From the IMG/VR virus record IMGVR_UViG_3300009506_000030, positions 1 through 60,840 of that record: a DNA stretch of 60,840 bases. One strand, given 5' to 3'. The first letter of the stretch is position 1, and the number at the start of each line of letters is the position of its first letter. Below the pieces are notes generated by a model. It saw only the letters and a program-made list of their open reading frames with translations. It made no database searches and had not been told where the DNA came from. The translations under genes and the position numbers were made by a program. Positions 23,942-51,814 of this stretch are shown here, one piece after another. This DNA is from a virus. Lineage: Duplodnaviria; Caudoviricetes.

Positions 23942-24265
23942 TTATTCCTTTAAAGACAATCCTTGATCAATAGTAGTTTGTAAAGATATATTTTCATCAG
24001 TATTAATAGTTTGAACATTTTGTAAATAAGCAATTTTATCATCAATTAAATCATTTAATATATTCTGCTTAATAGCATCTGATAAATATATATTTAATAT
24101 TTGTAATAATGTTCTTGACAAAAGCCATTCTTCTGAAAGTTTTGGAGTTTGTTCAACTGTTATTCTTTCTCTAATTAAATCTTTTAATACATCTTGCTTA
24201 ATCTGTGTCCAAGCCACTTCTTTATCCTTTTTAGGTTTTTTGGGTTTCTTAGGTTTTTTTGTCAC
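23942..24265 (-). CDS. hypothetical protein
   Basis: ORF track; overlaps the fibre stop. Confidence 0.55.
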   Translation of the reverse strand: MTKKPKKPKKPKKDKEVAWTQIKQDVLKDLIRERITVEQTPKLSEEWLLSRTLLQILNIYLSDAIKQNILNDLIDDKIAYLQNVQTINTDENISLQTTIDQGLSLKE

Positions 24266-32448: not shown

Positions 32449-33381
32449 TTAAGAAATATTCTGAATCTGCCCCTGGTAACGTGGAGCAGTACAAATAATA
32501 TTACCCATCCAGTAAAAACGCCCTGTCTTGGCATCTTCATCGAGATGGGTCATAAAATCCTGCCATGACATATTGCGGTCTTCATGAACAACAAACTCAA
32601 TAAAATCTGTATTCAGAAGATAAGCAATACCAGTTGCAAGATCATCATCAGTAATAACTATAGCAGAGTTGAACTCTATTCCATTAAAACCAATGGACCT
32701 GAGATCAACATGCCCAGTATTCTGATACCGTTGCTGCGGAGTCATCTTGTTCCACATGCTGTTGTATACAGCCTGTGTAGTGATGATCATATCAGGTTCT
32801 TTGTTGTTCTTGGTAGTCTCACCGTAAGCAGTCTGAAACATGCTGTTGGAGTAAGCTCCACCTGTTGCGTTCAGGTAAGCTTGCGCCCATGTGTCAGTTG
32901 TTCGGTTAATCGTACCATAGGTAGTATAGTTTGTGCCATCATCACAGATAGCTGGCAAACCATCTATTTGATCTCCAGAACCACCAGACCTGAGACCGTC
33001 ATTTAAAATCTGAGACATGGTTTCTCTCGCATTGTCCATTTTGTCAGCTACAAAATTTCTAATACGGTTAGAACCCATAGAAATAGCTTCGGACCATCCA
33101 TCGATTGTAACATCTACATACGCCATTTTCCAATCGTGGATAAATTCCTTTACTGTCTCTTTCTGTGTAGTACTGAACTTAGCACCCCTGCTATAGAATC
33201 CACCAGGGAGACGTGCATATCTTGCGCCAGTTCTGATGTTCTCACCAGAATCAGCCATGTACTTGCCTTTTCCTTCGATACGAGCAAGAATCGCATTATT
33301 CTGAATTATCTGCGACTCAATCTTTGGAAGATACTCGTCCCTTACAAAGGCATCAATTTCTTGAACATTACTTTTGCTCAT
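32449..33381 (-). CDS. major capsid protein
   Basis: 310 aa after scaffold; GL.AI....TYG.I.R...W, PD.IITT, YLLNT, N.....PR.Q motifs typical of phage capsid proteins. Confidence 0.85.
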   Translation of the reverse strand: MSKSNVQEIDAFVRDEYLPKIESQIIQNNAILARIEGKGKYMADSGENIRTGARYARLPGGFYSRGAKFSTTQKETVKEFIHDWKMAYVDVTIDGWSEAISMGSNRIRNFVADKMDNARETMSQILNDGLRSGGSGDQIDGLPAICDDGTNYTTYGTINRTTDTWAQAYLNATGGAYSNSMFQTAYGETTKNNKEPDMIITTQAVYNSMWNKMTPQQRYQNTGHVDLRSIGFNGIEFNSAIVITDDDLATGIAYLLNTDFIEFVVHEDRNMSWQDFMTHLDEDAKTGRFYWMGNIICTAPRYQGQIQNIS

Positions 33382-34433: not shown

Positions 34434-34435
34434 AA

Positions 34436-34771: not shown

Positions 34772-34965
34772 ATAGCAGCAGCTGCTACACGTTTACCTGC
34801 TTCAGCAGATCCATATTGTTTGGCAGCTTTGGCAGCTACTTTAGCAAATCCTTTTCCCTTTTTACCTATATCTCCACCTGATCTTGCTTTTTTTGCTACA
34901 GTACTCTTTGTCTTAGCAGACAACCCTTTTGAAGGAGAAGTTGATTTTCCTTTAAACTTAGCCAT
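34741..34965 (-). CDS. small Lys/Ala-rich basic protein
   Basis: AGGAGG RBS; F.KVA.KA..YGS.E.G.RVAAA.MW pattern. Confidence 0.7.
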   Translation of the reverse strand: MAKFKGKSTSPSKGLSAKTKSTVAKKARSGGDIGKKGKGFAKVAAKAAKQYGSAEAGKRVAAAAMWKNIKRGKS

Positions 34966-37561: not shown

Positions 37562-38872
37562 TTAGGATAAGCTTTCCAGTGCTTTTTTATTCTGAATAAA
37601 TGGGTAATAGGCAAAATTGGACTCTGAAATAACCCCATCTATCATTAAATCCTTAATAAAAATATAATCTTCAAATCGGGGATAATTCTCCTTAGCTTCC
37701 TCAAAACATCTTTTAGCTCTAAGGAAATCCCCCATCTGCCTATAAGCACATCCCTTGTAGAACAAGGATGTACCTCTGCAAAATACGATATCTTCTGATT
37801 GTTCCTCTTTATATTGCTCCATTAAGACTATAACTTCTCTGTTCATGCCAGATTGAAGTAAGGTTGGAGCAAGACCAAGAAAAGCTTGGTTACTTGTTAA
37901 TGGGAATTTTTCAAAGATACCATCAATAATAGTATTAACGTTCTTGGTTTCAAAAAGTTCTTTTATGGTTTTATTTATTTTTTCAGCTGAATGATCGTAA
38001 GAATTAAGTATATTTAATATGCCATCATAATTTACATCGATTGCTTTATAAGAAGGGTTTTCCGATTTTTGCAATATAATTTGCATAGATCTATGATGCC
38101 CACTATATGAGCAATCAATAATGGCCAATCCAGCCTTGGAAGCAAGTCTTTGAAAGCTTTCAAAAGAAAATGTGCAATTATGAGCAGAAGACAAAAAAGC
38201 ATCAACTATTGTAGTTGGATATGGATATATATAAGATGGTGTCTCAATAATAATTAACCCATTATTATCAATAAACTGCTTAATGTGCCCTAAAAACTTA
38301 AGCGGAGAGTAAAAATGCTCAATAGTATTACATGAAATAATAATATCATACTTTTTATCTTCTTTAAAAGCAAAGACATTATTAAACATAATATCTATGC
38401 CAAATAGCTTCTGAGCTATATCATTACTCCTTTTGTCCATATCAATACCTTTTACAGTAGCTCCCATGGACTCAAGCCCTTTTAACAATACTCCTGTCCC
38501 AGAACCGACTTCTAATACGTTTTTTTGCTTTATGTTTATGTTGTGTTTCTTAATAAAATCAAGCATGTAGACTGATTTTATTACAGAATCAATAATACTT
38601 GCTTTTGAAATACCGTCAACCAATCCTTCTTTAAAGAGTGACAAATAATGCCCATCATAAAAAATATTCTGTGATTCTTCTGTAAGCATAGGATTTTTAA
38701 ATATTAACCCACAATCCATGCATAAAACATCTTTCATGTGAAAAAGAGTGCTTCCCTGCTTAATTAACCTTGCCTTTGACCATGGTTTTTTCTCCCATAT
38801 CAACTTCAGATTCTTGGAACCGCATACAATACAATCTCTTTCTTCTTCTTTATACGTTACAAATTCATCCAA
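37562..38872 (-). CDS. class I SAM-dependent methyltransferase with N-terminal Zn ribbon and C-terminal TPR-like helices
   Basis: CIVC..CMDC, VLEVGSGTG, IEHF.SP, IETP. Confidence 0.85.
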   Translation of the reverse strand: MDEFVTYKEEERDCIVCGSKNLKLIWEKKPWSKARLIKQGSTLFHMKDVLCMDCGLIFKNPMLTEESQNIFYDGHYLSLFKEGLVDGISKASIIDSVIKSVYMLDFIKKHNINIKQKNVLEVGSGTGVLLKGLESMGATVKGIDMDKRSNDIAQKLFGIDIMFNNVFAFKEDKKYDIIISCNTIEHFYSPLKFLGHIKQFIDNNGLIIIETPSYIYPYPTTIVDAFLSSAHNCTFSFESFQRLASKAGLAIIDCSYSGHHRSMQIILQKSENPSYKAIDVNYDGILNILNSYDHSAEKINKTIKELFETKNVNTIIDGIFEKFPLTSNQAFLGLAPTLLQSGMNREVIVLMEQYKEEQSEDIVFCRGTSLFYKGCAYRQMGDFLRAKRCFEEAKENYPRFEDYIFIKDLMIDGVISESNFAYYPFIQNKKALESLS

Positions 38873-40623
38873 TGCTTGTCACTCCTTTTTGTCATAGGGT
38901 CAAAATCATCATAATGAAGCCTATCACGAACATCTGGCTTCACTGTTTCTGAAACAGGATCAATAATACCCTTGCTGTAAATTTGCTGTTCTCCATATTC
39001 CTGCTCCATACCACTCAGCATTATTAAAAAAGCCATCACAAGGTCATCTTTTCCTCTCCCATAAGCGCTTGCACCAGGCCCATAAGCATCCCGAACATAT
39101 ATCATCATTTCATCAACAAGTGATTCACTTTTAATGACAATCATTTTATTATTAATACAATATCTTCCCAAAGTAAGCATTGATGGCTTTGATGTAGGAT
39201 CTGTTTTCCACCCGTATTTGTCCTTGGAAACCCTGCTTAGAGCATCCATGACTTTTCTCTTGATAACATCCCAGTAATCCCTATCCAATATAGCATCTAT
39301 AACAGCATGACCGTAACCGAATGCTTCTGGAACTAACAGGGCCTTGTTATACATCACTCCAATATCAACAGCCAGCCATCCCAGTATCTTAGCATCTAGT
39401 TTTCCATGCCATTCAGCTGCTTGGCTGGCAATAATACCAGTTCTTCTGTCAAGAACACGAAATACTTCTATACCAGCCATATCTGTAGATCCTGGCTCTC
39501 CAGAAGAAGGATCAATGCCGATAACGTATTTTTCGCCAGGTATAGGATCTTCCCATATTTTAAGTCTTCCTATACTGTCAGAAACCAACTTCCCATTAGA
39601 AAGGTTTCCTATAAATTTAGGCTTTTCACACGCCCTCTTGTATTCTTTTAAAACAGCCCTGTCAAATACATTATTACCGCTGACAATAAATGCTTCATCA
39701 TCGGTAGTTGGATACTGCTCATGAAAAGCTTCAATGCTACTCTTATCACCTTCTGCAAGATTGTATCCTAAAAGACCAATCTGATTTCTTCTCCAATGAA
39801 GCTGCTCCAGTGTAGCCTGATGTTCATCTTGCAATTCTTTTTCTTCATCATCTAATGTATCAATTATTTTTTCCTTGTCTTTTATATCAGCAAAAGGCAT
39901 AGTATAATTTTCATGGTCAAGCCACGAATAAAAAAGAGGCTTGAATGCACTCTTCCCAGCCTTTGCTTTCTTCCATTCATTATAAAAATGCTCACCTTGT
40001 CCTACAATCCCGTTAGCTGTAGACTCTATAATAACAAATGTTCCAGGCTCCTGAAATGCAGTAGGGATAACAGCCTTTCTCACTGATTCTGCATCACGAT
40101 AGTTGGCATATTCAGAAAAATGGATGAAGTGATTACCAGATCCCAGTCCTGCTTTATTGGTGCAGGAGACTGTTCGCATGGATGATTTAAGACCATGGCC
40201 ACCGTATTTTTGCTGCTTACTTTTGGGTATATCGAACACGAGCTTAGAACTACTTTTATATTTGGTTTCTGGTTGCAGCTCTGGAGGGAGATACTCGTAG
40301 AAGACATGCGACATGTTGTGAATATAAGAACATCCTTCGTCATCTGCTGCGATAGTAATACCTTGCCTATGAGACTTGGTATGACACTCGTGGAACATTC
40401 TTGACTGGACATATGTTGATACACCATGCCTTCTGGCTTTAAGAACGATAAGTCTGATGGGCAAGTTATTTTGCTTGTGCCATTCCCATACTTTGTTGAT
40501 TTCTCTTTGTACGAATCTTTGGGAATAATCAAATTTTATTAATCCTTCACCTGCTTGAATCCATAATAAGTTTCTTGCATAGAAATCATAATCCTGCATT
40601 TGTGCAACTGTAACTTTATTCAT
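38857..40623 (-). CDS. terL: terminase large subunit
   Basis: LKARRHGVST Walker A, HFSE, IESTANG, QYP, IGIDP, DDLVMA. Confidence 0.92.
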   Translation of the reverse strand: MNKVTVAQMQDYDFYARNLLWIQAGEGLIKFDYSQRFVQREINKVWEWHKQNNLPIRLIVLKARRHGVSTYVQSRMFHECHTKSHRQGITIAADDEGCSYIHNMSHVFYEYLPPELQPETKYKSSSKLVFDIPKSKQQKYGGHGLKSSMRTVSCTNKAGLGSGNHFIHFSEYANYRDAESVRKAVIPTAFQEPGTFVIIESTANGIVGQGEHFYNEWKKAKAGKSAFKPLFYSWLDHENYTMPFADIKDKEKIIDTLDDEEKELQDEHQATLEQLHWRRNQIGLLGYNLAEGDKSSIEAFHEQYPTTDDEAFIVSGNNVFDRAVLKEYKRACEKPKFIGNLSNGKLVSDSIGRLKIWEDPIPGEKYVIGIDPSSGEPGSTDMAGIEVFRVLDRRTGIIASQAAEWHGKLDAKILGWLAVDIGVMYNKALLVPEAFGYGHAVIDAILDRDYWDVIKRKVMDALSRVSKDKYGWKTDPTSKPSMLTLGRYCINNKMIVIKSESLVDEMMIYVRDAYGPGASAYGRGKDDLVMAFLIMLSGMEQEYGEQQIYSKGIIDPVSETVKPDVRDRLHYDDFDPMTKRSDKHWMNL

Positions 40624-41317
40624 CTAACTCAATTTCACCTTCCTCCTGCAGCATCTTTTCATAAGTGCTAACTTGCTGCTCTTTGGCTGAACCTGATTTG
40701 GGAGCTAAAAAAACTCTGGCCTCTTCTGCCATTCTTACTTTAACATCATTGCTTGTCCTAGTATCGGCAATAATTTTATTCAATGCATTTATTACAACAA
40801 CACATTGTTTCTTTGATAGAAGGTCAAATGACTTAAGCAGATAACTGACCGCTGCCCTCTTCTCTTTCATGTCTATTTTTCTTTTAGTAACTAACTTCAT
40901 CATCTGATCTATTCTAAATTCTTCAGTATCCTTCATTAAATCAGAGACAAGATCAAAGTTACTTCCATAGTTATCCAGGTTATCTTTTGGCCTTATCCTT
41001 GGAGCAGCTACACGTTTATGCCTATCTATTTCATAATGATCAGTTTCCTTTGCATAACGATAATTATCATGAAGTCTTGCTAACCGTTTTCTAATGCAGT
41101 CATCGCAAAACCATATGTATTGCTTTATCCTACCCTGTGTAATATTATCATGAGTAAGATCAATGCCACAACCATTACACTTTTTATCTTCAGGAATTGG
41201 CAGCAGCTTCGGACCCTTGCGTTCCTCTATAATTTTTTTCAGTTCCTTCGTATACGTGTTTATAGAGTTTAAGGAGTCCAAAGAAGAATTCGAAGATTTC
41301 GATAAATCTTGCAACAA
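40616..41317 (-). CDS. candidate terminase small subunit (start uncertain)
   Basis: Directly upstream of and overlapping terL; two CxxC plus helical C-terminus. Confidence 0.4.
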   Translation of the reverse strand: MLQDLSKSSNSSLDSLNSINTYTKELKKIIEERKGPKLLPIPEDKKCNGCGIDLTHDNITQGRIKQYIWFCDDCIRKRLARLHDNYRYAKETDHYEIDRHKRVAAPRIRPKDNLDNYGSNFDLVSDLMKDTEEFRIDQMMKLVTKRKIDMKEKRAAVSYLLKSFDLLSKKQCVVVINALNKIIADTRTSNDVKVRMAEEARVFLAPKSGSAKEQQVSTYEKMLQEEGEIELDE

Positions 41318-43121
41318 TTAACTCATCTCCTTTGTAAAGTGAGGGAAGGGTTTTTAAGGTATTCTCTTTTCCCATGCACCAAGATTGTATAACATGCATA
41401 ATAGTATAATAGCACATATCATGAGTAAGAATGCTGTCCTTCACCTTGCTAACATAATCAAAAATATCACTTATACTTTTATCTACAGTGCTATTATCAA
41501 ATAGGAGAAAACCCTTTTCCATATTTGCTAAAACTTCTTCTATTTCTTTTATGCTCCATGATAGATAATCAAGGCCTCTCTCTATTTCCTGATTAATGGT
41601 TTGAACATCATTTGCCTTTTCCTCATCGCTTGGAACAGCCAAACATTCTCTCAAGACATTGTTGGTTCCAATGTCATTTTGTATATACTTGTCAATCGCC
41701 TCTTGCAATGGCATAAAAACAGTACCGTTTATTCTAGCTCCACCTTCTGTTGCATTAATAACTGTGTACTCTCTCTTCTTTGTAGCTATATCAAATTCAA
41801 ATCTTTTAAGCATGCCAACCCATGTTTCTAAAGAATCAAGCATTTGTCCATCATTGCCGATTACTTTCGATTTCTGCTTTATGAGCTGTGAAGTTTTAAG
41901 ACCATTACTTGCATGATTAGCGCCAGTAACATGAGAATCACCATTAGGGGCAAAAGCAAGATCCTGACCAACAAGAATTATAGGATCACATCCCATATAT
42001 TCTGCAATCTTGTATGCCATATTTGTAACAGACTTGCCAGTGTTGAGTATTCCCTTGTCCAGTTTTAACCATTTGAAATGAGCAAAATCCCTGAACACAA
42101 CCATATGATCTCCATGCCATTCATTATAGACATGAGGCTTAACTACTGGACAGGCCCCCAGCCACATCCCCTTCATAGAATCCTTATTTTCTATTTGCTT
42201 AAAATGATTGCATGTGGTAAGGTTGCGTTCCAGTGAACAAACAATATCTGGAACGATAGGAGGATCATGGTTAACAAATGTATTTAAAGATGCATCAGCT
42301 GCAAAGAATACACATTTGTTTTTTATTGATGGAAGCAAATGTATATTTTTATTTAATGATGGACCAGTGGCAACAATAACAGCTGGCTTACCAGCAAACT
42401 TATCCTTAACCTTTGAAACACCTGGCTGAGAAGATATCAAATCAAGGTTCTGTAGCATGTGGTCTATCCCGAACCAACTGTCTTCTGGATCATTACCATA
42501 TGAGCTTTTAATATCATAACACACACGCCCTATTTCTTTGCAGAACGGCTTATAATAATCTTTGTTAAAACGTATCTCAACTGGATGTTCAATAAAATGA
42601 AAAGTAGTAAAAGACTGCTTTCCAGTATTGTTTATCTTATCATATATATATGAATAAACATTAGGGATAGGAACACCTGCTACAACATAGACTCCATCAT
42701 GATCAAATATGCTGCAATTACCATTAGGGGTATTTACTATGGGCTGTTGATGCCTTATGTACTGATTGAAGATCTGTAAATTATTTTCTACCATTATTAT
42801 AAAAGGTAAATCTTTTGCATACCTCTCAAAAATATAATTTAAATAATATCCCATTCCTATGCCAAGCATGACTATAACATTAGCACTTGTTATGTCTTCA
42901 GAAACAATATTAGATGCAAATGACTTGGCCTCAGCTATAGGGTCTTCCCTCGAATGAAGCAACCACTCTGTCTCACCAGTTTTAACAGTTAATGTCTTAA
43001 ATGGTGGTATCTTGGTAGGAATAACTTTAGTGCTGTAATCATCGCTCAAATGGCGTAGTTGATTAGCAAGCACTGGATACCTTTTAGCAATAGCAGCCAT
43101 GTTAAATTCATAAACACTCAT
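41190..43121 (-). CDS. maf: Maf-family (motility associated factor, DUF115) glycosyltransferase
   Basis: LHS..DP..EA, IVATGPSLNKN, PDIVCSLER, SV.NMAY..A..MGCDPIILVGQDLA, INATEGGA. Confidence 0.9.
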   Translation of the reverse strand: MSVYEFNMAAIAKRYPVLANQLRHLSDDYSTKVIPTKIPPFKTLTVKTGETEWLLHSREDPIAEAKSFASNIVSEDITSANVIVMLGIGMGYYLNYIFERYAKDLPFIIMVENNLQIFNQYIRHQQPIVNTPNGNCSIFDHDGVYVVAGVPIPNVYSYIYDKINNTGKQSFTTFHFIEHPVEIRFNKDYYKPFCKEIGRVCYDIKSSYGNDPEDSWFGIDHMLQNLDLISSQPGVSKVKDKFAGKPAVIVATGPSLNKNIHLLPSIKNKCVFFAADASLNTFVNHDPPIVPDIVCSLERNLTTCNHFKQIENKDSMKGMWLGACPVVKPHVYNEWHGDHMVVFRDFAHFKWLKLDKGILNTGKSVTNMAYKIAEYMGCDPIILVGQDLAFAPNGDSHVTGANHASNGLKTSQLIKQKSKVIGNDGQMLDSLETWVGMLKRFEFDIATKKREYTVINATEGGARINGTVFMPLQEAIDKYIQNDIGTNNVLRECLAVPSDEEKANDVQTINQEIERGLDYLSWSIKEIEEVLANMEKGFLLFDNSTVDKSISDIFDYVSKVKDSILTHDMCYYTIMHVIQSWCMGKENTLKTLPSLYKGDELIVARFIEIFEFFFGLLKLYKHVYEGTEKNYRGTQGSEAAANS

Positions 43122-44152
43122 TTGTACTCCCCTAACATTATATCAGAACCATAATAAATAACTGCTTCAGCAGCTCTGCCCAAACGTAAATTAACAAACT
43201 GTAAAAAATCTGCTATGTTTGGAAAATTAAAAATCTCTCTGTGAAAATATACCTGAATAGCTTCTTCAGAAACAGAAGGGCATACAAAGCAAATCTGCCT
43301 GTTGTTATACTGTTCGCTAAAAACATCATCAAAAAATGCTGGTCTTAATCCATTTGGTTGCTGAAACCCATAGTGGACTCCTATCCCTTCAGGGCAATCA
43401 CTCCAGATACAAATAATACCACCATCCTTAACCTGTGTATGTTCCATAAAAACACACATTGCATTCATTGACTGGAGAAAATCTTTGTTCTTTATAATCG
43501 GAACTAAGATAGCAACATCAGTCGGATCAGGTAAAATAACAGAATAGTCATTGATCGCAGAACATCGAAAATGCCTAGCATGTAAAGAAGCTTTATAGAT
43601 AGATATACGTACAGGATCACCATAGCAGTTAATGCTATAGTTAACATAAGTCTCGATGCGCTCTCTTGTGCCTTGATAAAAACCTCTTTCCGCTTCTGTG
43701 ACGGAACCATGGAATTCCATGACATCTTGGTAACCACTCAATCCAGGTAAAACAATTTTACAATCACCACTTAACCCAACATATGTATGAGGAAGAACAC
43801 AACCAACCCCTATAATGTTATATTTCTTTTTATTGAGAGGGAAGTTGCAGAGTGGGCTATGTGAATATATCTTAAGCCTTTTGGTCAGATCGGACCCGAT
43901 TTTATCTGACACCTCATGGTGTGTGTTTGCACGATGTAACCCACTCGCCACAACAACTGCAACCTTATCCTCTCCAACTTTATTAACCGCATACTCAACT
44001 ACCATCCTTGCAATACTTGTTCTTGGTCTGGTAAAATCATCAATAACAATTAAAACATCTCTAGTGTCAAATGTAATGTTATGAATTTCATCTAATAGTT
44101 GGTATGTCTCAAGTGGTTTTATATGATTTAAACTTACCGTATCTAGCTGCAC
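43118..44152 (-). CDS. LarA-like (nickel-pincer lactate racemase superfamily) protein
   Basis: DDFTRP, ASGLHR, PHTYVGLSG.CKIVLPG, C.EGIG motifs. Confidence 0.75.
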   Translation of the reverse strand: MQLDTVSLNHIKPLETYQLLDEIHNITFDTRDVLIVIDDFTRPRTSIARMVVEYAVNKVGEDKVAVVVASGLHRANTHHEVSDKIGSDLTKRLKIYSHSPLCNFPLNKKKYNIIGVGCVLPHTYVGLSGDCKIVLPGLSGYQDVMEFHGSVTEAERGFYQGTRERIETYVNYSINCYGDPVRISIYKASLHARHFRCSAINDYSVILPDPTDVAILVPIIKNKDFLQSMNAMCVFMEHTQVKDGGIICIWSDCPEGIGVHYGFQQPNGLRPAFFDDVFSEQYNNRQICFVCPSVSEEAIQVYFHREIFNFPNIADFLQFVNLRLGRAAEAVIYYGSDIMLGEYK

Positions 44153-44802
44153 TTGTATTTTTTGATAAAAGTTTCAACTATTGCAAAGTCTTCTTTTGTG
44201 TTTATATTATATCCTCTGTGCTTAGGTATTATAGTATAGAACCTGTTTAAATCAACATGGTTAATATCGGTAACACATAAGTACTTTCTGCTATAAGAAT
44301 ACATATTGCCACTTCTTATGATTACTCCTTCTGGTTCAGTCCCTTCTTCCCATTGTATAGCTTGTTCCAAATAAGAAGGATTAATATTATCATCAACATA
44401 ATATGTTTTCCCCAAATGAAAGCCAGAAGACTCCATCTGAGTTATAAAACTTATAAGATCATTTTTATGTCTTAATGGATTAGTAGGCTGAAATAGTATT
44501 ACATGATCATATTCTTTATTGAATATCCTTTCAGCATGTAAAAGAGCATGTCTAACAGATATTACATGGGGAGTTTTGTCCTGGCATAATGCTTCTGGTC
44601 TCTTTAACTTGTGGAGACAATCTGGCACGTCAAATGATACTGGTGAATCAGAAGAAAAAATAATATCTTCAAAGAATCTTTTGTTTGCAACTAAAAAATC
44701 AGTGGTCCATTGATATAATGGTTTACCTCCAATAACTTTTTTGTTTTTTCCCCTCACCCGTACACTGGTCGATTTAGCGGTAACCAACCCAAGGATCTTC
44801 AT
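44143..44802 (-). CDS. neuA: CMP-nonulosonic acid synthetase (cytidylyltransferase)
   Basis: AKSTSVRVRGKN...GKPL..WT, LKRP..L..D, QPTNPLR, NINT.EDF. Confidence 0.88.
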   Translation of the reverse strand: MKILGLVTAKSTSVRVRGKNKKVIGGKPLYQWTTDFLVANKRFFEDIIFSSDSPVSFDVPDCLHKLKRPEALCQDKTPHVISVRHALLHAERIFNKEYDHVILFQPTNPLRHKNDLISFITQMESSGFHLGKTYYVDDNINPSYLEQAIQWEEGTEPEGVIIRSGNMYSYSRKYLCVTDINHVDLNRFYTIIPKHRGYNINTKEDFAIVETFIKKYKCS

Positions 44803-45433
44803 ACCAAAAACCTTTCCCCAACCATTTATTAGTTTCCCATACCCTTTTATTATAAAAATGTTCTATCAAGCCCTTTAATGCAGGATAAACCCATATAACA
44901 TCTAAACTTCTCAGAGAAAAACATTTATCCCTATAAACATCTTTATCCTCAAAAATGTTAGTAAGTTTTTTCGGTACTACATAATGAATATTCAAGCCAG
45001 TCTTTTTTACCTTAGACCTCATGTGTTTAATTAATTTTATCTGATAAACAGATTCATAATGCTCAAGTAAACCATAAGTAAAAACTATATCAAAAAAATG
45101 ATCTGGATATGGGATATCAAATGCATTAGCCCTGCAAAACTTATGATTCCTTCCGTTATCTGGAGGTATATAATATTTATCTATAGTATGTGTATCCATA
45201 CCACATCCATATAAGTAATCACTCATTATAGACCTGCCACATCCCACTTCAAGAGATTTAAGATCTTTTAAATTGCCTTCTGGAAAGTGCATAGTAGCTC
45301 TTGTTTTTAAAAACATGGCATTTAAATAAAATGCATGTTCATCAATCTGCTTCCCCTGTCTTTTAGACCAGAATTTTACCCAATTGTTTAGCAATTTTCT
45401 CTCCAGCATGACCATCACCATACATAGTATCAC
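44774..45433 (-). CDS. class I SAM-dependent methyltransferase (start probably TTG ~45394)
   Basis: LEVGCG, AF.IPYPD..FDIVF..GLLEH. Confidence 0.85.
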   Translation of the reverse strand: MILCMVMVMLERKLLNNWVKFWSKRQGKQIDEHAFYLNAMFLKTRATMHFPEGNLKDLKSLEVGCGRSIMSDYLYGCGMDTHTIDKYYIPPDNGRNHKFCRANAFDIPYPDHFFDIVFTYGLLEHYESVYQIKLIKHMRSKVKKTGLNIHYVVPKKLTNIFEDKDVYRDKCFSLRSLDVIWVYPALKGLIEHFYNKRVWETNKWLGKGFWYEDPWVGYR

Positions 45434-46490
45434 GCTGATAATATCTCTTCCTCTGTCTAGTGATGGCTTGTTTCAAAATTACTCTGTCAAATGGAACATG
45501 AGAGACATTCCTTCCACACTCTCTTCCTTCCTGTCGATCACCAATGCTGACAGATGGAATACCAAGAAAAGTAGCCTCTCTTATACCAGCAGAACTGTTA
45601 CCAATAATACAACAACACTGACACATTAAAGCGCTAAAAACAGCAGAATCCAAATGTCTAATATATCTAACGTTTGAATCCCAGTTAAGTTCTTTAATCA
45701 TTCTCCACGCTTTAGCTATCTTGTCACTGCCAGGATCAATATTGGGCCACATAACTATTTTCTGTTCATCAAATTCATTTAAAACATCAAATACCATATT
45801 GACCTGTTCTCCAGTTACTGGATCTCCTTTTGTATCTGGATGAAGCATAATAATAAAGAAATCTCCATATATCTCTATTTTATCACCATCCCCATGCCTA
45901 TTAACTTCATCCTGTATTGATTTCCAGTTAGGAACTAATGAACTAAGCAAGTCCATAGAAGGGCATCCCATTGCCCAAATTCTAGCATGATCTTTTTGCT
46001 TCATCTGCAGTATTCTATCTGCAGCATCTGCAGTAGCAGGAAAATGATAATCAGCAAGCTGTGTTATTGCATTGCGTACCTTATCATCTATTGTTCCAGA
46101 AATCTCTCCTCCTTGAAGATGAACAAGAGGAATGTTCACATAAGAAGCAGCTATCGCAGTAGCAAGAGTTTCATACCTGTCTGCAACAGTCATAATCATA
46201 TCTGGATTTTCATTGTCAAAAATAGTGGAAAGTTCAACGATGCCCAAACCAACAGTCTTAGGCATTTTGACGAGATCATCGCCCTCAACAGCCAATGACG
46301 TTTTGAAAATTCTTATATCAGGAAAGTCTTGTACTATATTATCAATAGCATATCCATACTTATACAAATATAAACTATTGCCCAGTGCAAGTACAGGTTC
46401 TATGTGTGCAGGAAGATTCTTTATTATTGTCTTTACTTTGTTGTAACTGCTTCTGTTCGTTACCGCTATTACTAACTTTTTCCGCTTCAT
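45363..46490 (-). CDS. neuC: hydrolysing UDP-GlcNAc 2-epimerase (NeuC/LegG family)
   Basis: DRYETL, HLQGGE.SGTIDD..R.AIT.LA.YHF, PN.D.G, GNSSAGIREA, G.RQ.GR, YGDG. Confidence 0.92.
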   Translation of the reverse strand: MKRKKLVIAVTNRSSYNKVKTIIKNLPAHIEPVLALGNSLYLYKYGYAIDNIVQDFPDIRIFKTSLAVEGDDLVKMPKTVGLGIVELSTIFDNENPDMIMTVADRYETLATAIAASYVNIPLVHLQGGEISGTIDDKVRNAITQLADYHFPATADAADRILQMKQKDHARIWAMGCPSMDLLSSLVPNWKSIQDEVNRHGDGDKIEIYGDFFIIMLHPDTKGDPVTGEQVNMVFDVLNEFDEQKIVMWPNIDPGSDKIAKAWRMIKELNWDSNVRYIRHLDSAVFSALMCQCCCIIGNSSAGIREATFLGIPSVSIGDRQEGRECGRNVSHVPFDRVILKQAITRQRKRYYQRDTMYGDGHAGEKIAKQLGKILV

Positions 46491-46779
46491 CCCTTTTCCC
46501 TTGTAATTTCATCATCTGTATTGCGATGTAAACCAACGCATCCGCTATCTCCTCCAGGGATTCCTGTATATGATCAAGCTCCATATTACATGACATTTCA
46601 CCATACTGAGGATATCCAATTCCCAGTATCCTTTGGGTTAGAAGTTTTAATATTCTCCTTTCATAATAAAGCTCTGGTTCATTGCTAGACATAATCTCCA
46701 ATCTCGAAATCAATTTCTTTGCATATTCTTCTCTCGATTTTCTTTCCTCTAGTTTGTTCATAAAATAATTCCTCATCAA
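46375..46779 (-). CDS. MazG-like all-alpha hypothetical protein
   Basis: G...YG...EE.AD..VY motif; overlaps neighbours. Confidence 0.45.
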   Translation of the reverse strand: MMRNYFMNKLEERKSREEYAKKLISRLEIMSSNEPELYYERRILKLLTQRILGIGYPQYGEMSCNMELDHIQESLEEIADALVYIAIQMMKLQGKRDEAEKVSNSGNEQKQLQQSKDNNKESSCTHRTCTCTGQ

Positions 46780-47032
46780 ATGTGTATAGCTTTATAAGCA
46801 GTTCTTTATGTATAGTGAATGGATTCATCACTTGCGAGGTAGTGTCAAACATCTCTTCAGCTAATGCAAGAGTAATAAAATCTTTATCCTCTTTAATAAC
46901 AACGCCACATCCAATATGAATAGAATCCCTTTTAACAGGCAATTCCTTTCTTGATACCCATCCATCTTTATAGAGGGGATCTATGAATATAAAGAATGCA
47001 AATGTATGTTTAGTATTATCTGTATCATTCAT
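46685..47032 (-). CDS. hypothetical protein
   Basis: ORF track 115 aa. Confidence 0.6.
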   Translation of the reverse strand: MNDTDNTKHTFAFFIFIDPLYKDGWVSRKELPVKRDSIHIGCGVVIKEDKDFITLALAEEMFDTTSQVMNPFTIHKELLIKLYTFDEELFYEQTRGKKIERRICKEIDFEIGDYV

Positions 47033-47191
47033 TGCTAGTTACTAGCCCTGTATGAATATTAGAATATATATAACCAGAATTAAGTTTATTCATAGTATCA
47101 TCTAATTGCTGCAATTCCTGTTTTGCTAATTCATAATCACAACCTCCTTGTGAATACATATATGCTAAAATTTCATTATCAGATAAATCAC

Positions 47192-47374
47192 TCATAGCCA
47201 ACTCCTTATGATATCAAATACACCCATATATACATATTCAAGCAAAGCATCAATCAATTTGAAGATAATATAAGCAAGGCAAATAACAATAATAGTAGCC
47301 CTAACATCATGTACATCCAACCCTTCAGTATTCTTTGGGCCATAAATAATCATTCTCCATATTTGTTTTAACAT
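47192..47374 (-). CDS. small membrane protein
   Basis: One hydrophobic helix. Confidence 0.5.
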   Translation of the reverse strand: MLKQIWRMIIYGPKNTEGLDVHDVRATIIVICLAYIIFKLIDALLEYVYMGVFDIIRSWL

Positions 47375-47393
47375 CTACGCACCATAAACATAT

Positions 47394-47633
47394 TCATCTT
47401 CCTAAATTCTCAGCCATTCCTTTTGCAAGTAATATAGCACATATACAAAGTACGGGCCATATTAGAAATCCCCAATGATTACCATAATCTTTGAGACATC
47501 CAAACCCTGTTATCATCCAAGGAATAATAAAAAACACAGATAGCATAAACCAACTTCCAACATAATCCTTCCAATCATAAAATTTACAATCCCAAGCTTT
47601 TTCATGCAGCAATTTTATTTTCTCAAGAATCAT
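47394..47633 (-). CDS. small membrane protein (2 TM)
   Basis: AAGGA RBS; two hydrophobic segments. Confidence 0.55.
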   Translation of the reverse strand: MILEKIKLLHEKAWDCKFYDWKDYVGSWFMLSVFFIIPWMITGFGCLKDYGNHWGFLIWPVLCICAILLAKGMAENLGR

Positions 47634-47654
47634 TGTTTTCCTTTCCTTTGGTCA

Positions 47655-48320
47655 TCATATAGAAGTATCAGTCATAACCATGTAAGGTTCAAACTTACGA
47701 TGGACTTTCTCGGTGGCAATTACATCCTTCCTGCAGTGGTCAAGAACATACTCTAATGATTTTCTCTGCCCTTGAGATGCATGAATCCAGTGGCGATTAT
47801 CAATCCTGGTTTTCGTTGTCTTACCTATCATGATACGCTCAAGATTTTCAAGTCTTCTGGAACTTGCCTTGATGTTCCTTCTGGCAACAAAGTAGAGATC
47901 TTTATGATATCGTGAACCAAACGGTGGGAACGGAACCCCCTGCATAAAGCAACGAGTTTTAATGAATGGTATGTCAAACTTGGAAGAATAAAACCCTATT
48001 GTTCTGTCAAATGATTCAATGTCCTTGACAAGCTTTTTAAGGAGTTGTTTGTCAAGATCAATATGTACATCTTTTTCAGATACACATCCTTCAACAATTT
48101 CATCCTTACCAGACACTTTAATGCAGTAACATAATATAAATCCAAAATCTGCATTAAGGTTAGTGCATTCTATGTCAATATAGCCAACCCTCTCCTGATT
48201 ATATCCTTCATGAATATAGCAATTATAATGCTCAAGAAAAGGCATCCTATGTTTTTTGCATCTATGGTTTGCTAACCAAATAATTTCTTTCTTTTTTAAT
48301 GAATGGACTGGTGCTGGCAT
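47655..48320 (-). CDS. RNase H-like DEDD 3'-5' exonuclease
   Basis: YIDIE, KFDIPF, HKDLY, HC.KDV motifs. Confidence 0.8.
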   Translation of the reverse strand: MPAPVHSLKKKEIIWLANHRCKKHRMPFLEHYNCYIHEGYNQERVGYIDIECTNLNADFGFILCYCIKVSGKDEIVEGCVSEKDVHIDLDKQLLKKLVKDIESFDRTIGFYSSKFDIPFIKTRCFMQGVPFPPFGSRYHKDLYFVARRNIKASSRRLENLERIMIGKTTKTRIDNRHWIHASQGQRKSLEYVLDHCRKDVIATEKVHRKFEPYMVMTDTSI

Positions 48321-48625
48321 ACATCCTCATCATCTTTCTCCTCCACAGTTATTTGTCTGATTCCTTCGCCACTATCCACAATAAATAGAGTACCGCCATT
48401 ATTGCCAGGATGTTTATTATGTAATATAGCATTTTCCCTCCAGAAAATTCTAATAAAAAAGCTTAAACAAGCCCCAATAAAAAATAGAGCAACCAAAATA
48501 GGAACAAAAACAAAAATAAAAGCTGTTGTATATAAAACTATCATTCCCATGGAAATTGCCATAATAATATCTAAGACTCTTCCACAAGTTTCTTTAATTT
48601 TTCTTTTGACATTTTGTATTCGCAT
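48296..48625 (-). CDS. membrane protein (start uncertain)
   Basis: Long hydrophobic segment; overlaps both neighbours. Confidence 0.45.
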   Translation of the reverse strand: MRIQNVKRKIKETCGRVLDIIMAISMGMIVLYTTAFIFVFVPILVALFFIGACLSFFIRIFWRENAILHNKHPGNNGGTLFIVDSGEGIRQITVEEKDDEDVCQHQSIH

Positions 48626-50325
48626 GGAGTCAATACCTCTTCACCCCTACTTCCTTCACGATAAATCGTGACTCCCTTTACATCATACATATGATCAAGC
48701 AATAATTTATTCAGCTTTATCTCTGGATAGTCATGCCTGACAGGAACGGTCAAAGAAATAGAATTATCTATATACTGTTGTGCAGTGCTTTGTATCTCAA
48801 AATACTTTTCTGGATTTATTTCGTATGATCCAACAAAATGGCTCACATCCTTACCAGATAAAACAAATTGCTTAAAGAGAGGATCAACCTCAGTCACCTG
48901 CTGCTTCTTACCTCCAACATAGTATCTTCGCTTATATATGGGATGGAAAATAGACTGTATCCCTTGGCTAACCCCAGCAACGATAGAAGTAGTTCCTGTT
49001 GGTGGCATCGATAGTAGTGTCCCATTTCGCAATCCAAATTCCTCAATGTCTTTACGAATTCTCCTGGGGAGAGTGCGAACAAAGCTCCCTTCGAGATGGT
49101 CACTGGCCTGAAATTTTTGGAACGGACCTCTTTCTTTTGACAATTCAATGCTTGCTTCATAGGCATAATTTCGAAACTTTGTGAGCAGTCCTTCCATAAA
49201 CTCAATACTGTCTTTTGAGCCATAGTCATTTATCCCCATCTTAAGCATTAAATAATGCAAACCCATCACACCAAGACCAATCCTTCTTGTTGATCGTGAA
49301 ACAAGATCAATTTCTGGCAATGGGTATTCTGTTACATCAAGAACATTGTCTAAAAACCTAACTGCATAGTATACGATAGTCTTTAATAATTTCCAGTCTA
49401 CATCATTTTTCTTTTCATCATAAAATAATGAAAGGTTAATACTTCCAAGATCACATGCACCATTTTTGGGTACTGGTATTTCACCGCAAGGATTAACAGC
49501 AACAATCTTTTCACAGTACCATAAAGGATTGTTAAGCTCTATATTGTCAAAATTTAAGAATCCAGGTTCTGCCTTTTTCCATGCATGGTTAACAGCTGTG
49601 TCCCATATATCTCTTGCCTTAACTGTTTTATATATTCTATTGTTAAATTGGAGATTCCACTCCTTATCTTTTTTAACAGCATTGAGAAAATCATTAGTAA
49701 GCTTCACACTTATATTAAAATTTTCCCATTCAGTATCTTTTATTTTCTTAGCAATAAATTCAAATATCTGCGGATGTGATGGATGCATAAAAGTAATGCC
49801 AGCACCACGCCTATCACCTCCTCCTCTTATTAGACCAAGCCAAAAGTTAGTACCATCAATAAAAGACAATGCTCCAGAAGACTCGGAATTATTTCCCTGA
49901 GAAACTAATGGAGTACCTTTAGGTCTTAAAGGGGAAGAATCAAAGCCAACACCACCACCGTATTTAGAGATAATAACCGCATCAGAGAGAAGTTTGACAA
50001 TGCTTTGAATATTATCTTCCCATTCAAGCCCAAAACAATTAAGCAGCATTCCCTTATTCTTACCAGCATTACGTAATATTCTACCTCCTGGAATAAAGAG
50101 AAAACGCTCAATCATATCACGATATGCCTGATAATAAACCTGTCTCTTCCCGTTAGGGTCTACAGAGCTGATAGACTTTGCAACTCTATCAGCACACCCT
50201 GCCCAGGTTTCATTATCATTTAACGCATATCGTAATTTAAAGATACTGTCGCTTAACCCACTAAGATCACGTTGATCTGATATGTTGCATCCAAGATCAT
50301 CGCACTCTTCACATAGCTTTGTCAT
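48571..50325 (-). CDS. nrdJ: class II (adenosylcobalamin-dependent) ribonucleotide reductase
   Basis: PGGRIL, NCF, NPCGE, CDLGSINL, R.IGLGVMG, PPTGT, KGVTIYR; no nrdB nearby. Confidence 0.88.
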   Translation of the reverse strand: MTKLCEECDDLGCNISDQRDLSGLSDSIFKLRYALNDNETWAGCADRVAKSISSVDPNGKRQVYYQAYRDMIERFLFIPGGRILRNAGKNKGMLLNCFGLEWEDNIQSIVKLLSDAVIISKYGGGVGFDSSPLRPKGTPLVSQGNNSESSGALSFIDGTNFWLGLIRGGGDRRGAGITFMHPSHPQIFEFIAKKIKDTEWENFNISVKLTNDFLNAVKKDKEWNLQFNNRIYKTVKARDIWDTAVNHAWKKAEPGFLNFDNIELNNPLWYCEKIVAVNPCGEIPVPKNGACDLGSINLSLFYDEKKNDVDWKLLKTIVYYAVRFLDNVLDVTEYPLPEIDLVSRSTRRIGLGVMGLHYLMLKMGINDYGSKDSIEFMEGLLTKFRNYAYEASIELSKERGPFQKFQASDHLEGSFVRTLPRRIRKDIEEFGLRNGTLLSMPPTGTTSIVAGVSQGIQSIFHPIYKRRYYVGGKKQQVTEVDPLFKQFVLSGKDVSHFVGSYEINPEKYFEIQSTAQQYIDNSISLTVPVRHDYPEIKLNKLLLDHMYDVKGVTIYREGSRGEEVLTPCEYKMSKEKLKKLVEES

Positions 50326-50363
50326 TTAATACCTTATCGATAATTTCAGCATATTATTAATCA

Positions 50364-51185
50364 TTAAATAATATACCTAGTCTTATAATGCTCATAACTT
50401 TCTCTTTCCCTATCCTGCATTACTAATCTGCCATCCCCAAACATACGAGATATTCTCTTGCATAATCCAACCAGGTTTCCCATGTCCTGTGGACTGCTTG
50501 CTATTTCTGAAGTAGGACCAAAACTGCCCTTTATTTTAAAATGTTTTTCTAAATAAGAAGCTCCTAGACTAACAGCGAGAAAACAAGGTAAATCATCAAG
50601 ATGATGATCGCTATAGCCAAAAGCAACTCTAGTCTTATCAATCCCACCGTATTTTTCCCTTAACGCAAGAATCCTGGATAAATTAAGCTCAGAATCATGC
50701 GTTGGATACAAAGAAACGCAATGCATGATAACAAGCTCATAAGTACAGTCTACAAGATCATATAAAATATCAAGTTCATTTGCATCCTTTATCATTCCCG
50801 TAGAAACAAACACCCTCCTCCATTGATGCTCTTTTATGGCATTTACCAGAAGAGGATGTAATTGACCAGAAGCTATCTTTATGTTAGAAACGTTTGTCCT
50901 CGTACAAAGTTCTACCATATTAGCATGATGAACTGTCGCTATAAGATCAATCCCATGGAAATCACAATCACTCTTAATTTCCTTTAATAAACTGTCCTTG
51001 ATCTCACAAGCCTTTATATTTTCTTTCTTATCCTGCCATGGATTACCTATTCTGCCAGAATCCTTTAACTGTACTTTTAAAAAATCTACCTGACAAACAG
51101 CAGCGTTATGAATAGTATCTTTAAGTAATTCTTCATCACCCTGCCAGTAATTAGCTATTTCTGCTATTATTTTTATATTCTTCAT
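50364..51185 (-). CDS. neuB: N-acetylneuraminate synthase family protein (no C-terminal SAF domain)
   Basis: IIAEI, KIASG, STGM, HCVSLYP, GYSDH, EKHF. Confidence 0.9.
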   Translation of the reverse strand: MKNIKIIAEIANYWQGDEELLKDTIHNAAVCQVDFLKVQLKDSGRIGNPWQDKKENIKACEIKDSLLKEIKSDCDFHGIDLIATVHHANMVELCTRTNVSNIKIASGQLHPLLVNAIKEHQWRRVFVSTGMIKDANELDILYDLVDCTYELVIMHCVSLYPTHDSELNLSRILALREKYGGIDKTRVAFGYSDHHLDDLPCFLAVSLGASYLEKHFKIKGSFGPTSEIASSPQDMGNLVGLCKRISRMFGDGRLVMQDRERESYEHYKTRYII

Positions 51186-51809: not shown

Positions 51810-51814
51810 ACATA

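Follow-up and report, generated by a model that had tools for sequence, protein, structure and literature searches.

The 60,840-nt window analysed here is the whole of a tailed-phage virus record (IMGVR_UViG_3300009506_000030, Caudoviricetes), approximately 91% complete, and encodes enzymes of nonulosonic acid synthesis together with a Maf-family transferase directly beside its terminase genes (Table 1). This gene content, as well as the assignment of the element to a phage, agrees with a preliminary description of the same DNA. The reading that we favour, with somewhat better than even confidence, is that the module is expressed late and attaches a modified, Neu5Ac-like sugar by O-glycosylation to head or other virion proteins of the phage itself. 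The proposed route would be self-sufficient: starting from UDP-GlcNAc, it would yield a CMP-activated, Neu5Ac-like nonulosonic acid in three steps. NeuC would make ManNAc, the short NeuB would condense it with PEP, and NeuA would use CTP to activate the product. A SAM-dependent methyltransferase and a compact LarA homologue, the latter borrowing the nickel-pincer cofactor of the host, would act on the sugar as tailoring enzymes. The full-length Maf would close the set. Its most likely acceptors are Ser/Thr residues in head or virion proteins of the phage itself, which it would O-glycosylate in the cytoplasm while the particle is being assembled or earlier.

Table 1. Features of the locus, listed in minus-strand order (positions in the window)
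Feature	Position	Strand	Evidence
Short NeuB-like nonulosonate synthase (273 aa)	50364..51185	-	PF03102 E 9.8e-34
NeuC-type hydrolysing UDP-GlcNAc 2-epimerase	45363..46490	-	PF02350 E 1.6e-56
SAM-dependent methyltransferase MT1	44774..45433	-	Methyltransf_23 E 7.6e-8, Methyltransf_11 E 5.9e-7
NeuA-like CMP-nonulosonate synthetase	44143..44802	-	PF02348 27.9 bits (cut-off 22.6)
Compact LarA homologue, 344 aa	43118..44152	-	Lar_N (PF09861) E 5.9e-21
Maf-family nonulosonate transferase, 643 aa	41190..43121	-	PF01973 (MptE-like) 141.6 bits (cut-off 34.6), E 2.8e-41
Small terminase (terS) candidate	40616..41317	-	Position only; overlaps Maf 3' end and TerL start
TerL large terminase	38857..40623	-	phrog_24361 E 1.9e-14, phrog_2 E 2.7e-12
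MT2, methyltransferase with C-terminal TPR repeat	37562..38872	-	Methyltransf_23 E 1.7e-18; TPR_2 E 2.8e-5 (under cut-off)
Portal protein (P22/SU10 type)	34965..36782	-	PF16510 E 1.3e-18, PF23899 E 1.4e-14, phrog_156 E 8.2e-33
Major capsid protein, candidate acceptor	32449..33381	-	phrog_9953 E 2e-38
252-aa head-module protein, candidate acceptor	31622..32380	-	After capsid gene in all relatives covering it
150-aa Ser/Thr-rich protein, candidate O-glycosylation acceptor	31104..31556	-	Ser+Thr content
1,835-aa repeat-rich fibre, C-terminal S74 chaperone domain, candidate acceptor	24249..29756	-	Peptidase_S74 E 3.6e-4

All genes named in the preliminary description were recovered at the positions it gave, on the minus strand, by ORF, Pfam, PHROGs and NCBIfam analysis. 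Their order on this strand is NeuC, MT1, NeuA-like, LarA-like, Maf, terS, TerL, the methyltransferase-TPR protein (MT2), portal and major capsid protein. The overlap chain seen earlier runs from NeuC to MT2, with successive ORFs sharing 4 to 128 bases, and the NeuB-like gene, reported at about 3.9 kb upstream on the same strand, is separated from NeuC by 3,874 bases containing genes for RNR and an exonuclease. A promoter and terminator scan of the locus gave matches at chance level only, and we infer co-transcription of the module solely from the ORF overlap. Its translational chaining to the terS, TerL, portal and capsid genes suggests late expression together with head morphogenesis. The terminase neighbourhood of phages often collects accessory genes for reasons apart from their function.

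The terS candidate matched no family in Pfam or PHROGs and is conserved (23-32% identity) before TerL in all ten clade loci; its true start probably lies downstream of the listed TTG, since the related proteins have 179-203 residues. TerL is 55-62% identical to its relatives. MT2 is a conserved head-module gene, present between TerL and portal in all nine clade loci covering this site and also in the distant relative C229.

NeuC passes the equivalog model TIGR03568 (290.4 bits, cut-off 235.9), as do the homologous proteins of four scanned relatives (242-275 bits), a model that presumably does not tell NeuC from LegG of the legionaminic acid pathway. The NeuB-like and NeuA-like proteins are divergent and score under the NCBIfam cut-offs. 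For the NeuB-like protein, the score against NeuB (TIGR03569, 107.2 bits, equivalog cut-off 399.65) was higher than that against PseI (86.7 bits), both far under their cut-offs, and the same ranking was found in all five clade NeuBs. Pfam gives a NeuB domain alone for this protein, with no C-terminal SAF/antifreeze-like domain detected. Its closest solved chain is 6ncs, a sialic acid synthetase of 290 residues (E 1.7e-16), with which its HCVS.YP and SDH motifs align; we take the His residues of these motifs to be two metal ligands of the NeuB barrel. In relatives, the gene product shows 39-50% identity and the gene adjoins that of RNR.

A NeuA profile built from five clade members matched five PDB entries, all of them CMP-Neu5Ac synthetases (best 6ifd, E 3e-16). 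The N-terminal nucleotide-binding and QPTNPLR motifs are invariant across the clade, as is a GYNIN motif, in which Asn presumably stands at the two catalytic Asp positions expected, from the meningococcal CMP-Neu5Ac synthetase, for the C-terminal acidic metal-binding motif. DegT and Polysacc_synt_2 domains, and with them the upstream enzymes of the Leg and Pse pathways, were absent from all three near-complete clade genomes. All three steps of the bacterial NeuC/NeuB/NeuA pathway to CMP-Neu5Ac are represented in the phage, which differs in having a short NeuB, a NeuA divergent in its C-terminal half, and interleaved methyltransferase and LarA-like genes.

Of the two interleaved genes, MT1 encodes a probable sugar-tailoring enzyme and lies between NeuC and NeuA in relatives too (33-43% identity). 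The LarA-like protein matches the LarA structure 2yjg (E 2e-9), and its residues D39, R42, H73, H122, K132 and H148, which are invariant in six clade members only 27-40% identical to each other, align to D72, R75, H108, H174, K184 and H200 of 2yjg. Among these, H108, H174, K184 and H200 presumably include two catalytic His residues, a Lys tether and a His ligand of the nickel. LarA positions that bind the cofactor or take part in catalysis are matched by invariant residues in the phage protein, which is about 80 residues shorter than LarA. It scores under the curated equivalogs for LarA and LarA homologues (best 70.3 bits, cut-off 460); its profile reaches thousands of LarA homologues, and it belongs to a separate short subfamily with about 22 representatives. 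From these sequence features the enzyme is predicted to be a 2-hydroxyacid racemase or epimerase dependent on the nickel-pincer cofactor. No LarC (Ni_insertion) or LarB (AIRC) was found in any of three clade genomes, which would leave supply of the cofactor to the host; a metagenome-assembled genome holding sister contigs has LarC (490.7 bits). We know of no earlier description of a LarA homologue in an operon of sugar-nucleotide and transferase genes.

The phage Maf also passes the Maf_flag10_N model (24.4 bits, cut-off 23.5). Its AlphaFold2 model (pLDDT 86.3) gave as top Foldseek match the Magnetospirillum Maf 5mu5 (E 1.6e-20, TM 0.51/0.52, 725 aligned columns), and the match, which spans the full length of the model, shows the whole three-domain Maf architecture in the phage protein. 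Weaker matches were obtained with the sialyltransferase ST8SiaIII, and the protein is far under the curated PseD model NF050051 (175.1 bits, cut-off 670). About 39 relatives share at least 44% identity with it, many on contigs of 57-70 kb, and the nearest bacterial Mafs show 30-34% identity or less. None of 50,697 deposited phage records matched either Maf query. The novelty suggested earlier is upheld, in that no phage Maf-nonulosonate system was found described in the literature covered, which largely lies outside subscription journals.

The module belongs to the core genes of the clade and is inherited vertically. Its gene order was identical in all ten Maf-seeded clade loci. Among 16 portal-seeded loci, Maf was found in each of the 11 that reach the site, the other five being too short to judge. 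The module proteins show 29-52% identity, compared with 43-77% for the structural proteins, and the early genes are mostly not in common. The tree of Maf broadly agrees with that of TerL, and the clade Mafs form one branch (SH-aLRT 100). These data also bear on the proposal that the cluster arose by chimeric assembly or from contaminating host DNA, which could be entertained for a metagenomic contig lacking terminal repeats. The gene order is kept in the 11 portal-seeded relatives reaching the site and in a genome that is 100% complete and bounded by direct terminal repeats, all of them independent contigs, and the G+C content is even over the module region (0.34-0.37). Together with the single Maf branch, this leaves an artefact a negligible probability, and it was rejected, unless one artefact is common to all related assemblies.

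Linkage of maf and synthesis genes to terminase in other viruses, for which a search had been suggested earlier, was found in unrelated lineages. Nonulosonate and Maf genes occur in packaging/head modules in four arrangements, one being that of the present clade, another that of a distant relative, and one more belonging to each of two unrelated lineages. Lineage 2 has an HK97-type portal and a pseudaminic-type pathway. In ten lineage-2 loci, Maf is followed within about 3 kb by a TerL-homologous ORF (an eleventh, L017, stops inside its Maf and was left out of this count). Nine of the ten have the upstream order GNAT, formyltransferase, short PseI-like NeuB, PseB and Maf; locus L020 begins inside its Maf, and its upstream genes lie off the contig. 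In two lineage-2 loci, terS is inside the cluster. A phmmer comparison of the window with lineage 2 matched Maf only, apart from one marginal small-ORF match (E 3.3e-4). The high-GC contig L024 has the order NeuB, NeuC, MptE-like, TerL and portal. In the distant relative C229, NeuB, NeuC, a methyltransferase, NeuA and a D-2-hydroxyacid dehydrogenase are located between portal and scaffold, the dehydrogenase filling the LarA-like slot, which hints that the sugar carries a hydroxy-acid substituent.

A broader interpretation, which we offer tentatively, is that at least three unrelated tailed-phage groups independently placed Maf and a complete nonulosonate pathway (Neu-type here, Pse-type in lineage 2) into packaging/head operons, so that their capsids would be O-glycosylated with acidic nine-carbon sugars. 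In the present clade, these might be tailored further by methylation and by 2-hydroxy-acid chemistry (e.g. of lactyl or glyceroyl type) through a viral LarA acting with the host nickel-pincer cofactor. To our knowledge, no nickel-pincer LarA enzyme was previously known from a virus, and the LarA-like enzyme would, if this is true, be the first.

All characterised Mafs act on flagellin, as far as we know, and the module could instead re-glycosylate a host protein (flagellin, pilin or S-layer), thereby masking the phage's own receptor, excluding competitors or keeping progeny off debris. We consider this unlikely. Maf1 of Aeromonas has been linked to flagellin pseudaminylation (PMC5420450), the closest cellular Mafs match the phage protein in their Pfam domains and carry source names like 'motility associated factor glycosyltransferase', and the acceptors among the phage proteins remain candidates. 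However, Flagellin_N had no match in any of five virus records (three from this clade, two from lineage 2), with positive controls matched; the window gave no match, in agreement with the earlier reader, who had seen no flagellin there. Modification of a host protein also fits less well with genes embedded in late packaging/head operons in four arrangements and with an apparently lytic lifestyle, the same five records containing no integrase of the tyrosine type, the one searched for. Glycosylation of flagellin precedes its export, and new subunits join the filament at its tip, so an enzyme of the late lytic cycle would alter little of an existing filament. The head/packaging placement in four arrangements and the lack of a tyrosine integrase strengthen the earlier idea of virion glycosylation, which remains a proposal.

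Alternatively, the genes might be auxiliary metabolic genes that, during infection, enlarge the supply of CMP-nonulosonate from which the host builds its capsule, LPS or flagella, with no role in the particle. Host-like sugar genes do occur in phages, and a few deposited records of uncultured phages have NeuB-like genes; nevertheless, this is improbable, because the synthesis genes are always accompanied by a dedicated transferase and because the module is core, conserved like structural genes, and situated with the head genes, away from early and metabolic genes. Even less probable is a non-protein acceptor, with phage DNA or a carrier made of glycan or lipid receiving the sugar. Hypermodification of DNA by phage glycosyltransferases has been described (bioRxiv 10.1101/2023.12.21.572611), the module adjoins terminase and NeuB adjoins RNR, and the Pse/Leg transferases of Tannerella, which are unrelated to Maf, act on an oligosaccharide (PMC5420450). 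In contrast, the bioRxiv report mentions no nonulosonic, sialic, pseudaminic, neuraminic, CMP- or MptE term, Pfam scans of the window's ORFs revealed no base-modification gene of the hydroxymethylase type, and the transferase has the whole Maf architecture.

With the flagellin Mafs of Campylobacter, Helicobacter, Aeromonas and Magnetospirillum (5mu5), the phage Maf has in common the central MptE-like domain, the fold of the whole protein, linkage to CMP-nonulosonate synthesis genes and, presumably by analogy, cytoplasmic O-glycosylation chemistry. Unlike them, it forms a chain with terS and TerL and is encoded by a phage that has neither flagellin nor flagellar genes. Among other viruses, giant viruses decorate their particles, examples being the chlorovirus capsid glycans, the mimivirus fibril sugars and the Kdo genes of CroV, and the haloarchaeal virus HRPV-1 has a spike bearing legionaminic acid and uses the host N-glycosylation machinery. 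The sugars on these particles are ulosonic or of bacterial type, and some are products of viral enzymes, as proposed here, but these viruses infect eukaryotes or archaea and involve transferases unlike the phage Maf. Mycobacteriophages reportedly employ conventional glycosyltransferases acting on host nucleotide sugars, whereas the present phage carries its own complete pathway to an acidic nine-carbon sugar, along with a transferase of the Maf type. The mycobacteriophage enzymes modify capsid and tail-tube subunits (Freeman et al. 2023, as cited in PMC12619734), and these phage-encoded transferases give the particle a glycan coat, while the present system is known from its genes.

If the phage modifies its own virion, as we favour, several of its proteins are candidate acceptors. 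The major capsid protein is the most conserved protein of the clade (74-80% identity among relatives). The 252-aa head-module protein (41-47% identity) falls in an Atlas cluster that comprises 1,110 viral proteins; among named clusters the nearest is XM1_gp53_minor_capsid/Phage_cement, with a score of only 0.82, which serves as a lead only; it is possibly a cement or minor capsid protein, and its structure model is unreliable (pLDDT 29.5). The 150-aa protein matched no family and has weak homologues in two relatives (30-33% identity), but its Ser+Thr content is the highest in the genome (0.28 compared with a median of 0.109 for 81 ORFs). The 1,835-aa fibre matched fibre and structural PHROGs and has a Ser+Thr content of 0.251.

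The nonulosonate synthesis, Maf and terminase genes named in the preliminary description were all present in the window at the sites proposed there, as judged from open reading frames (ORFs) and family profiles. The window, an entire IMG/VR virus record of 60,840 bases, is linear (CheckV completeness 91%). Its genes between ~8 kb and 56 kb lie on the minus strand, with a structural block first and then a block for packaging, sugar and nucleotide metabolism. As described, the chain from NeuC to the second methyltransferase is unbroken, with adjacent ORFs sharing 4 to 128 bases, and the NeuB-like gene lies on the same strand 3,874 bases upstream of NeuC, with ribonucleotide reductase (RNR) and exonuclease genes in between. 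NeuB, which stands apart from the remaining sugar genes, is directly followed by the RNR large subunit in the window and in all relatives covering this site. A 207-aa ORF abuts the start of NeuB, with stop and start adjacent; it showed no family matches and, by tblastn, no homologues in any related locus, and thus lies outside the conserved module. A scan of positions 32000-51900 found 80 promoter-like sites (77.6 expected) and 14 terminator-like sites (10.4 expected), and since these counts are at chance level, transcription units could not be drawn.

Features of the window phage genome discussed in the text
Feature	Position	Strand	Remarks
Early genes (DnaB-like helicase, Erf, exonuclease)	1-8 kb	plus	
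Portal, P22/SU10 type	structural block	minus	
Major capsid protein	structural block		phrog_9953
SU10-type adaptor	structural block		
Internal virion protein	structural block		
Fibre, 1,835 aa	structural block		S74 chaperone domain
Methyltransferase	37562-38872	minus	C-terminal TPR repeat
TerL	38857-40623	minus	
terS candidate	40616-41317	minus	
Maf	41190-43121	minus	PF01973, E 2.8e-41
LarA-like	43118-44152	minus	
NeuA-like	44143-44802	minus	
Methyltransferase	44774-45433	minus	
NeuC	45363-46490	minus	TIGR03568, 290.4 bits (curated cut-off 235.9)
RNR large subunit	48571-50325		
NeuB-like	50364-51185	minus	
ORF, 207 aa	51186-51809		
Ro60/TROVE-like protein	52841-54175	minus	PF05731, E 7.3e-20; phrog_850, E 4.1e-46
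tRNA-Thr(TGT)	55254-55329		

An alignment of 19 Mafs from the clade of close relatives retrieved 23 viral loci, ten of which belong to the window clade and retain its gene order as far as their contigs extend. With the portal instead of Maf as the seed, 16 loci were found; Maf was present in all 11 that reach upstream of terS (the remaining five are too short), and two of these 11 contigs were new, having been missed by the Maf-seeded search. One relative is a genome of 62,503 bases with direct terminal repeats, rated 100% complete. Among the three near-complete genomes compared, identity is 29-52% for the sugar genes and 43-77% for the structural genes, and the majority of the early genes are not shared. 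The clade Mafs form a single branch (SH-aLRT 100), and the TerL tree shows the main groupings of the Maf tree with one weakly supported difference. In a word-index search, about 39 proteins, many encoded on 57-70 kb contigs, were at least 44% identical to the window Maf, and below them identity falls to 38-40% and lower. By these comparisons, the sugar and Maf module is an inherited, core part of the clade genomes. The chimeric join with host DNA, which the preliminary description had named as a possible refutation, is contradicted by the gene order kept in independent contigs and by the complete terminal-repeat genome; an assembly chimera can in practice be dismissed.

The linkage of maf and nonulosonate genes to the terminase, proposed earlier as a subject for viral database searches, was seen both in the clade and in other viral lineages. 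Eleven viral loci (L012-L022) make up lineage 2, which is unrelated to the window lineage. Its portal is of the HK97 type and fused to Mu F, its terminase has a T7-like nuclease domain, and it also encodes a prohead protease and a Phage_capsid protein. A TerL-homologous ORF lies ~3 kb or less downstream of Maf in ten of these loci (L017 ends inside its Maf), and nine of ten have the order GNAT, formyltransferase, short PseI-like NeuB, PseB-like dehydratase and Maf (L020 starts inside Maf). Some loci add a PseC-like aminotransferase and a cytidylyltransferase, and two carry terS within the sugar cluster. In this lineage a pseudaminic-type set and Maf are wrapped around terS and TerL, NeuB is very short (~210 aa), and in L021 the set also includes a methyltransferase and a DUF4910/M28-like protein. 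A phmmer comparison of the window with two lineage-2 genomes found Maf in common and, beyond one marginal small-ORF match (E 3.3e-4), no second shared protein as a joint acceptor. The Maf clades of the two lineages are not sisters in the tree.

Two further viral contigs carry related clusters. The high-GC contig L024 encodes NeuB, a NeuC-like protein, an MptE-like protein, TerL and portal in this order; a Maf-TerL fusion was considered there and rejected, as BLASTP found no similarity in that frame and the MptE-like protein occupies a separate frame upstream of TerL. Contig L023 (positions 5281-11509) carries a cytidylyltransferase, a DegT aminotransferase, a GT2 protein, a radical-SAM/SPASM protein, NeuB and a 501-aa Maf. 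This cluster adjoins an RNR with a TSCPD domain, an RF-1-domain protein and a dUTPase.

The 38.9 kb contig C229, binned in a Thermodesulfobacteriota MAG, is distantly related to the window phage (identities of 35% for TerL, 37% for portal and 42% for capsid). Between portal and scaffold it encodes NeuB, NeuC, a methyltransferase, NeuA and a D-2-hydroxyacid dehydrogenase, and the two Mafs closest to the clade are found on further short contigs of that MAG. The TPR-repeat methyltransferase lies between TerL and portal in every clade member covering the site and also in C229 (L066:6448-7770), where it keeps this slot although the sugar genes have moved; its substrate may be a virion protein or the module's glycan. 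The C229 capsid gene is split in the assembly (L065:14436-16447), with an HNH endonuclease ORF (15389-16090) and 100 consecutive N inside it; the cause may be a gap in the assembly or an insertion of the homing-endonuclease or intron-like kind. One of the two Maf-bearing contigs of this MAG has convergent ORFs of 1,114, 391, 157 and 138 aa (L026:2693-8154), sizes resembling those of the window tail-region ORFs (1,500, 447, 156 and 138 aa); no sequence match was seen at E 1e-4, and Pfam was blank. Rather than a cellular locus, this contig is probably a further piece of phage DNA. From the short-contig binning and the presence of LarC in the MAG, Thermodesulfobacteriota-like anaerobes with larBCE are candidate hosts, though only as a lead.

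Across these phages, the module occupies four different positions, none of which lies outside the packaging and head block. These placements and the overlapping reading frames are the main argument that the module products would act during head morphogenesis; we infer the enzyme activities, sugar identity, expression timing and acceptor alike. A plain metabolic boost to the host sugar pool would leave both the constant presence of a transferase and the position of the genes unexplained, and is highly improbable. For a non-protein acceptor such as DNA, which would agree with the proximity of the module to the terminase and RNR and finds no other support besides it, we see only a faint chance. 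Flagellin and tyrosine integrase were found in none of five virus records (three from the clade and two from lineage 2), with positive controls matched. That the module modifies flagellin or another surface protein of the host, also offered in the preliminary description, appears unlikely.

If virion proteins are the acceptors, several candidates can be proposed from composition and conservation, namely the 150-aa head-module protein (31104-31556), the fibre (24249-29756), the capsid protein (32449-33381) and the 252-aa protein encoded after the capsid gene (31622-32380). The median Ser+Thr content of 81 ORFs is 0.109, and the highest credible values belong to the 150-aa protein (0.28), the 1,835-aa fibre (0.251) and an 88-aa ORF (0.216); the lineage-2 head module also includes small, very Ser/Thr-rich ORFs. 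No protein of the clade is better conserved than the capsid protein (74-80% identity). The 252-aa protein is conserved in all relatives and belongs to a large cluster of viral proteins; the named family nearest to this cluster is one of cement/minor capsid proteins, at a score that is only a lead. For the 252-aa protein, the AlphaFold2 model was unusable (pLDDT 29.5). Complex prediction for Maf and the major capsid protein gave a score of 0.00, which is uninformative either way.

Judged by motifs and predicted folds, the module enzymes look functional. NeuB is a short form (273 aa); its closest relative of solved structure is 6ncs, a sialic acid synthetase of 290 aa (E 1.7e-16), to which both His-containing motifs align. 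A NeuA profile of five clade proteins retrieved five matches among solved structures, all CMP-Neu5Ac synthetases (best E 3e-16). The C-terminal motif of NeuA is GYNIN, in place of the acidic pair that would be expected, which makes its activity uncertain. The confidently predicted Maf model (pLDDT 86.3) had its best structural match in the Magnetospirillum Maf glycosyltransferase 5mu5 over all three domains (E 1.6e-20), with the sialyltransferase ST8SiaIII among the weaker matches. Against PDB sequences, the clade Maf profile matched an archaeal HPPK alone (E 3.3e-4), and the kinship to 5mu5 appears at the level of the predicted fold only, not in the profile-sequence search.

Six clade members of the LarA homologue, only 27-40% identical, have invariant D39, R42, H73, H122, K132 and H148, which align to LarA D72, R75, H108, H174, K184 and H200, respectively; the functional roles assigned to residues of LarA, NeuB and NeuA are presumed here. 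In a profile search of 1.84 billion representatives, the homologue fell into a separate group of ~22 short sequences (320-357 aa), with a gap between it and the ordinary LarA homologues (390-430 aa). LarC and LarB are absent from the clade phages searched, so the nickel-pincer cofactor would have to be made by the host, and the LarA homologue thus predicts a testable host dependency. Lar homologues as companions of bacterial Mafs were rejected, since tblastn with the window Lar protein had no match (E ≤1e-4) at nine genome-contig loci of such Mafs.

Neither a 4,6-dehydratase (Polysacc_synt_2) nor a DegT aminotransferase was found in the three near-complete clade genomes, and the NeuB model outscored the PseI model for all five clade NeuBs, with all scores below the cut-offs. 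These results point to a Neu5Ac-type backbone made from UDP-GlcNAc as the self-sufficient reading; a legionaminic-type product from a host-supplied precursor is a possible alternative. As to the tailoring of a Neu5Ac-type sugar, the gene between NeuA and Maf encodes the LarA homologue in the window clade, and in the head module of C229 the corresponding slot after NeuA is occupied by a D-isomer-specific 2-hydroxyacid dehydrogenase (PF02826, E 1.6e-48; contig positions 17951-18940). Since both families act on 2-hydroxy or 2-keto acids, the sugar could be tailored by methylation together with a D-2-hydroxy acid (such as lactate or glycerate) or epimerisation beside a carboxylate. O-methyl and O-lactyl sialic acids and methylated glyceroyl groups on pseudaminic acid occur in nature. 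No enzyme for attaching a hydroxy-acid group was identified, which keeps this tailoring at the level of a hypothesis.

Neither the window Maf nor a lineage-2 Maf had a tblastn match at E ≤1e-5 in 50,697 deposited phage records, and NeuC and NeuB had three weak matches each, one on a Moritella contig. No description of a phage-encoded Maf or a virion-directed phage nonulosonate pathway was found in the literature covered, which mostly excludes subscription journals, and an earlier published description of such a system is possible. In the passages covered, virion glycosylation is cited for mycobacteriophages only (PMC12619734), and Maf1 was at its time the sole candidate for a transferase of pseudaminic acid (PMC5420450). 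A text search of a DNA-glycosylation preprint (10.1101/2023.12.21.572611) found none of six nonulosonate- or Maf-related terms. If true, sialic-like capsid sugars would alter the charge of the phage, its stickiness to mucus, biofilm and debris, and its recognition by defences and predators. The Maf family would then reach beyond flagellins, and virion glycosylation by phage-encoded enzymes, described for the mycobacteriophages, would gain a second example with very different chemistry that is spread through more than one lineage of uncultured phages. For glyco-engineering, the compact variants of NeuB, NeuA, Maf and LarA offer candidate tools.

Outside the sugar genes, the window encodes a Ro60/TROVE-like protein with a vWA domain, ~1 kb away from its one tRNA gene (tRNA-Thr). 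An Rfam scan of the window gave the tRNA as the sole match and no Y-RNA-like partner, and the protein had no tblastn match in two near-complete relatives. Coding strand and GC skew both switch at ~8 kb and ~56 kb (1-8000 and 56000-60840 versus 8000-56000), and over the last 5 kb G+C drops to 0.26-0.29.
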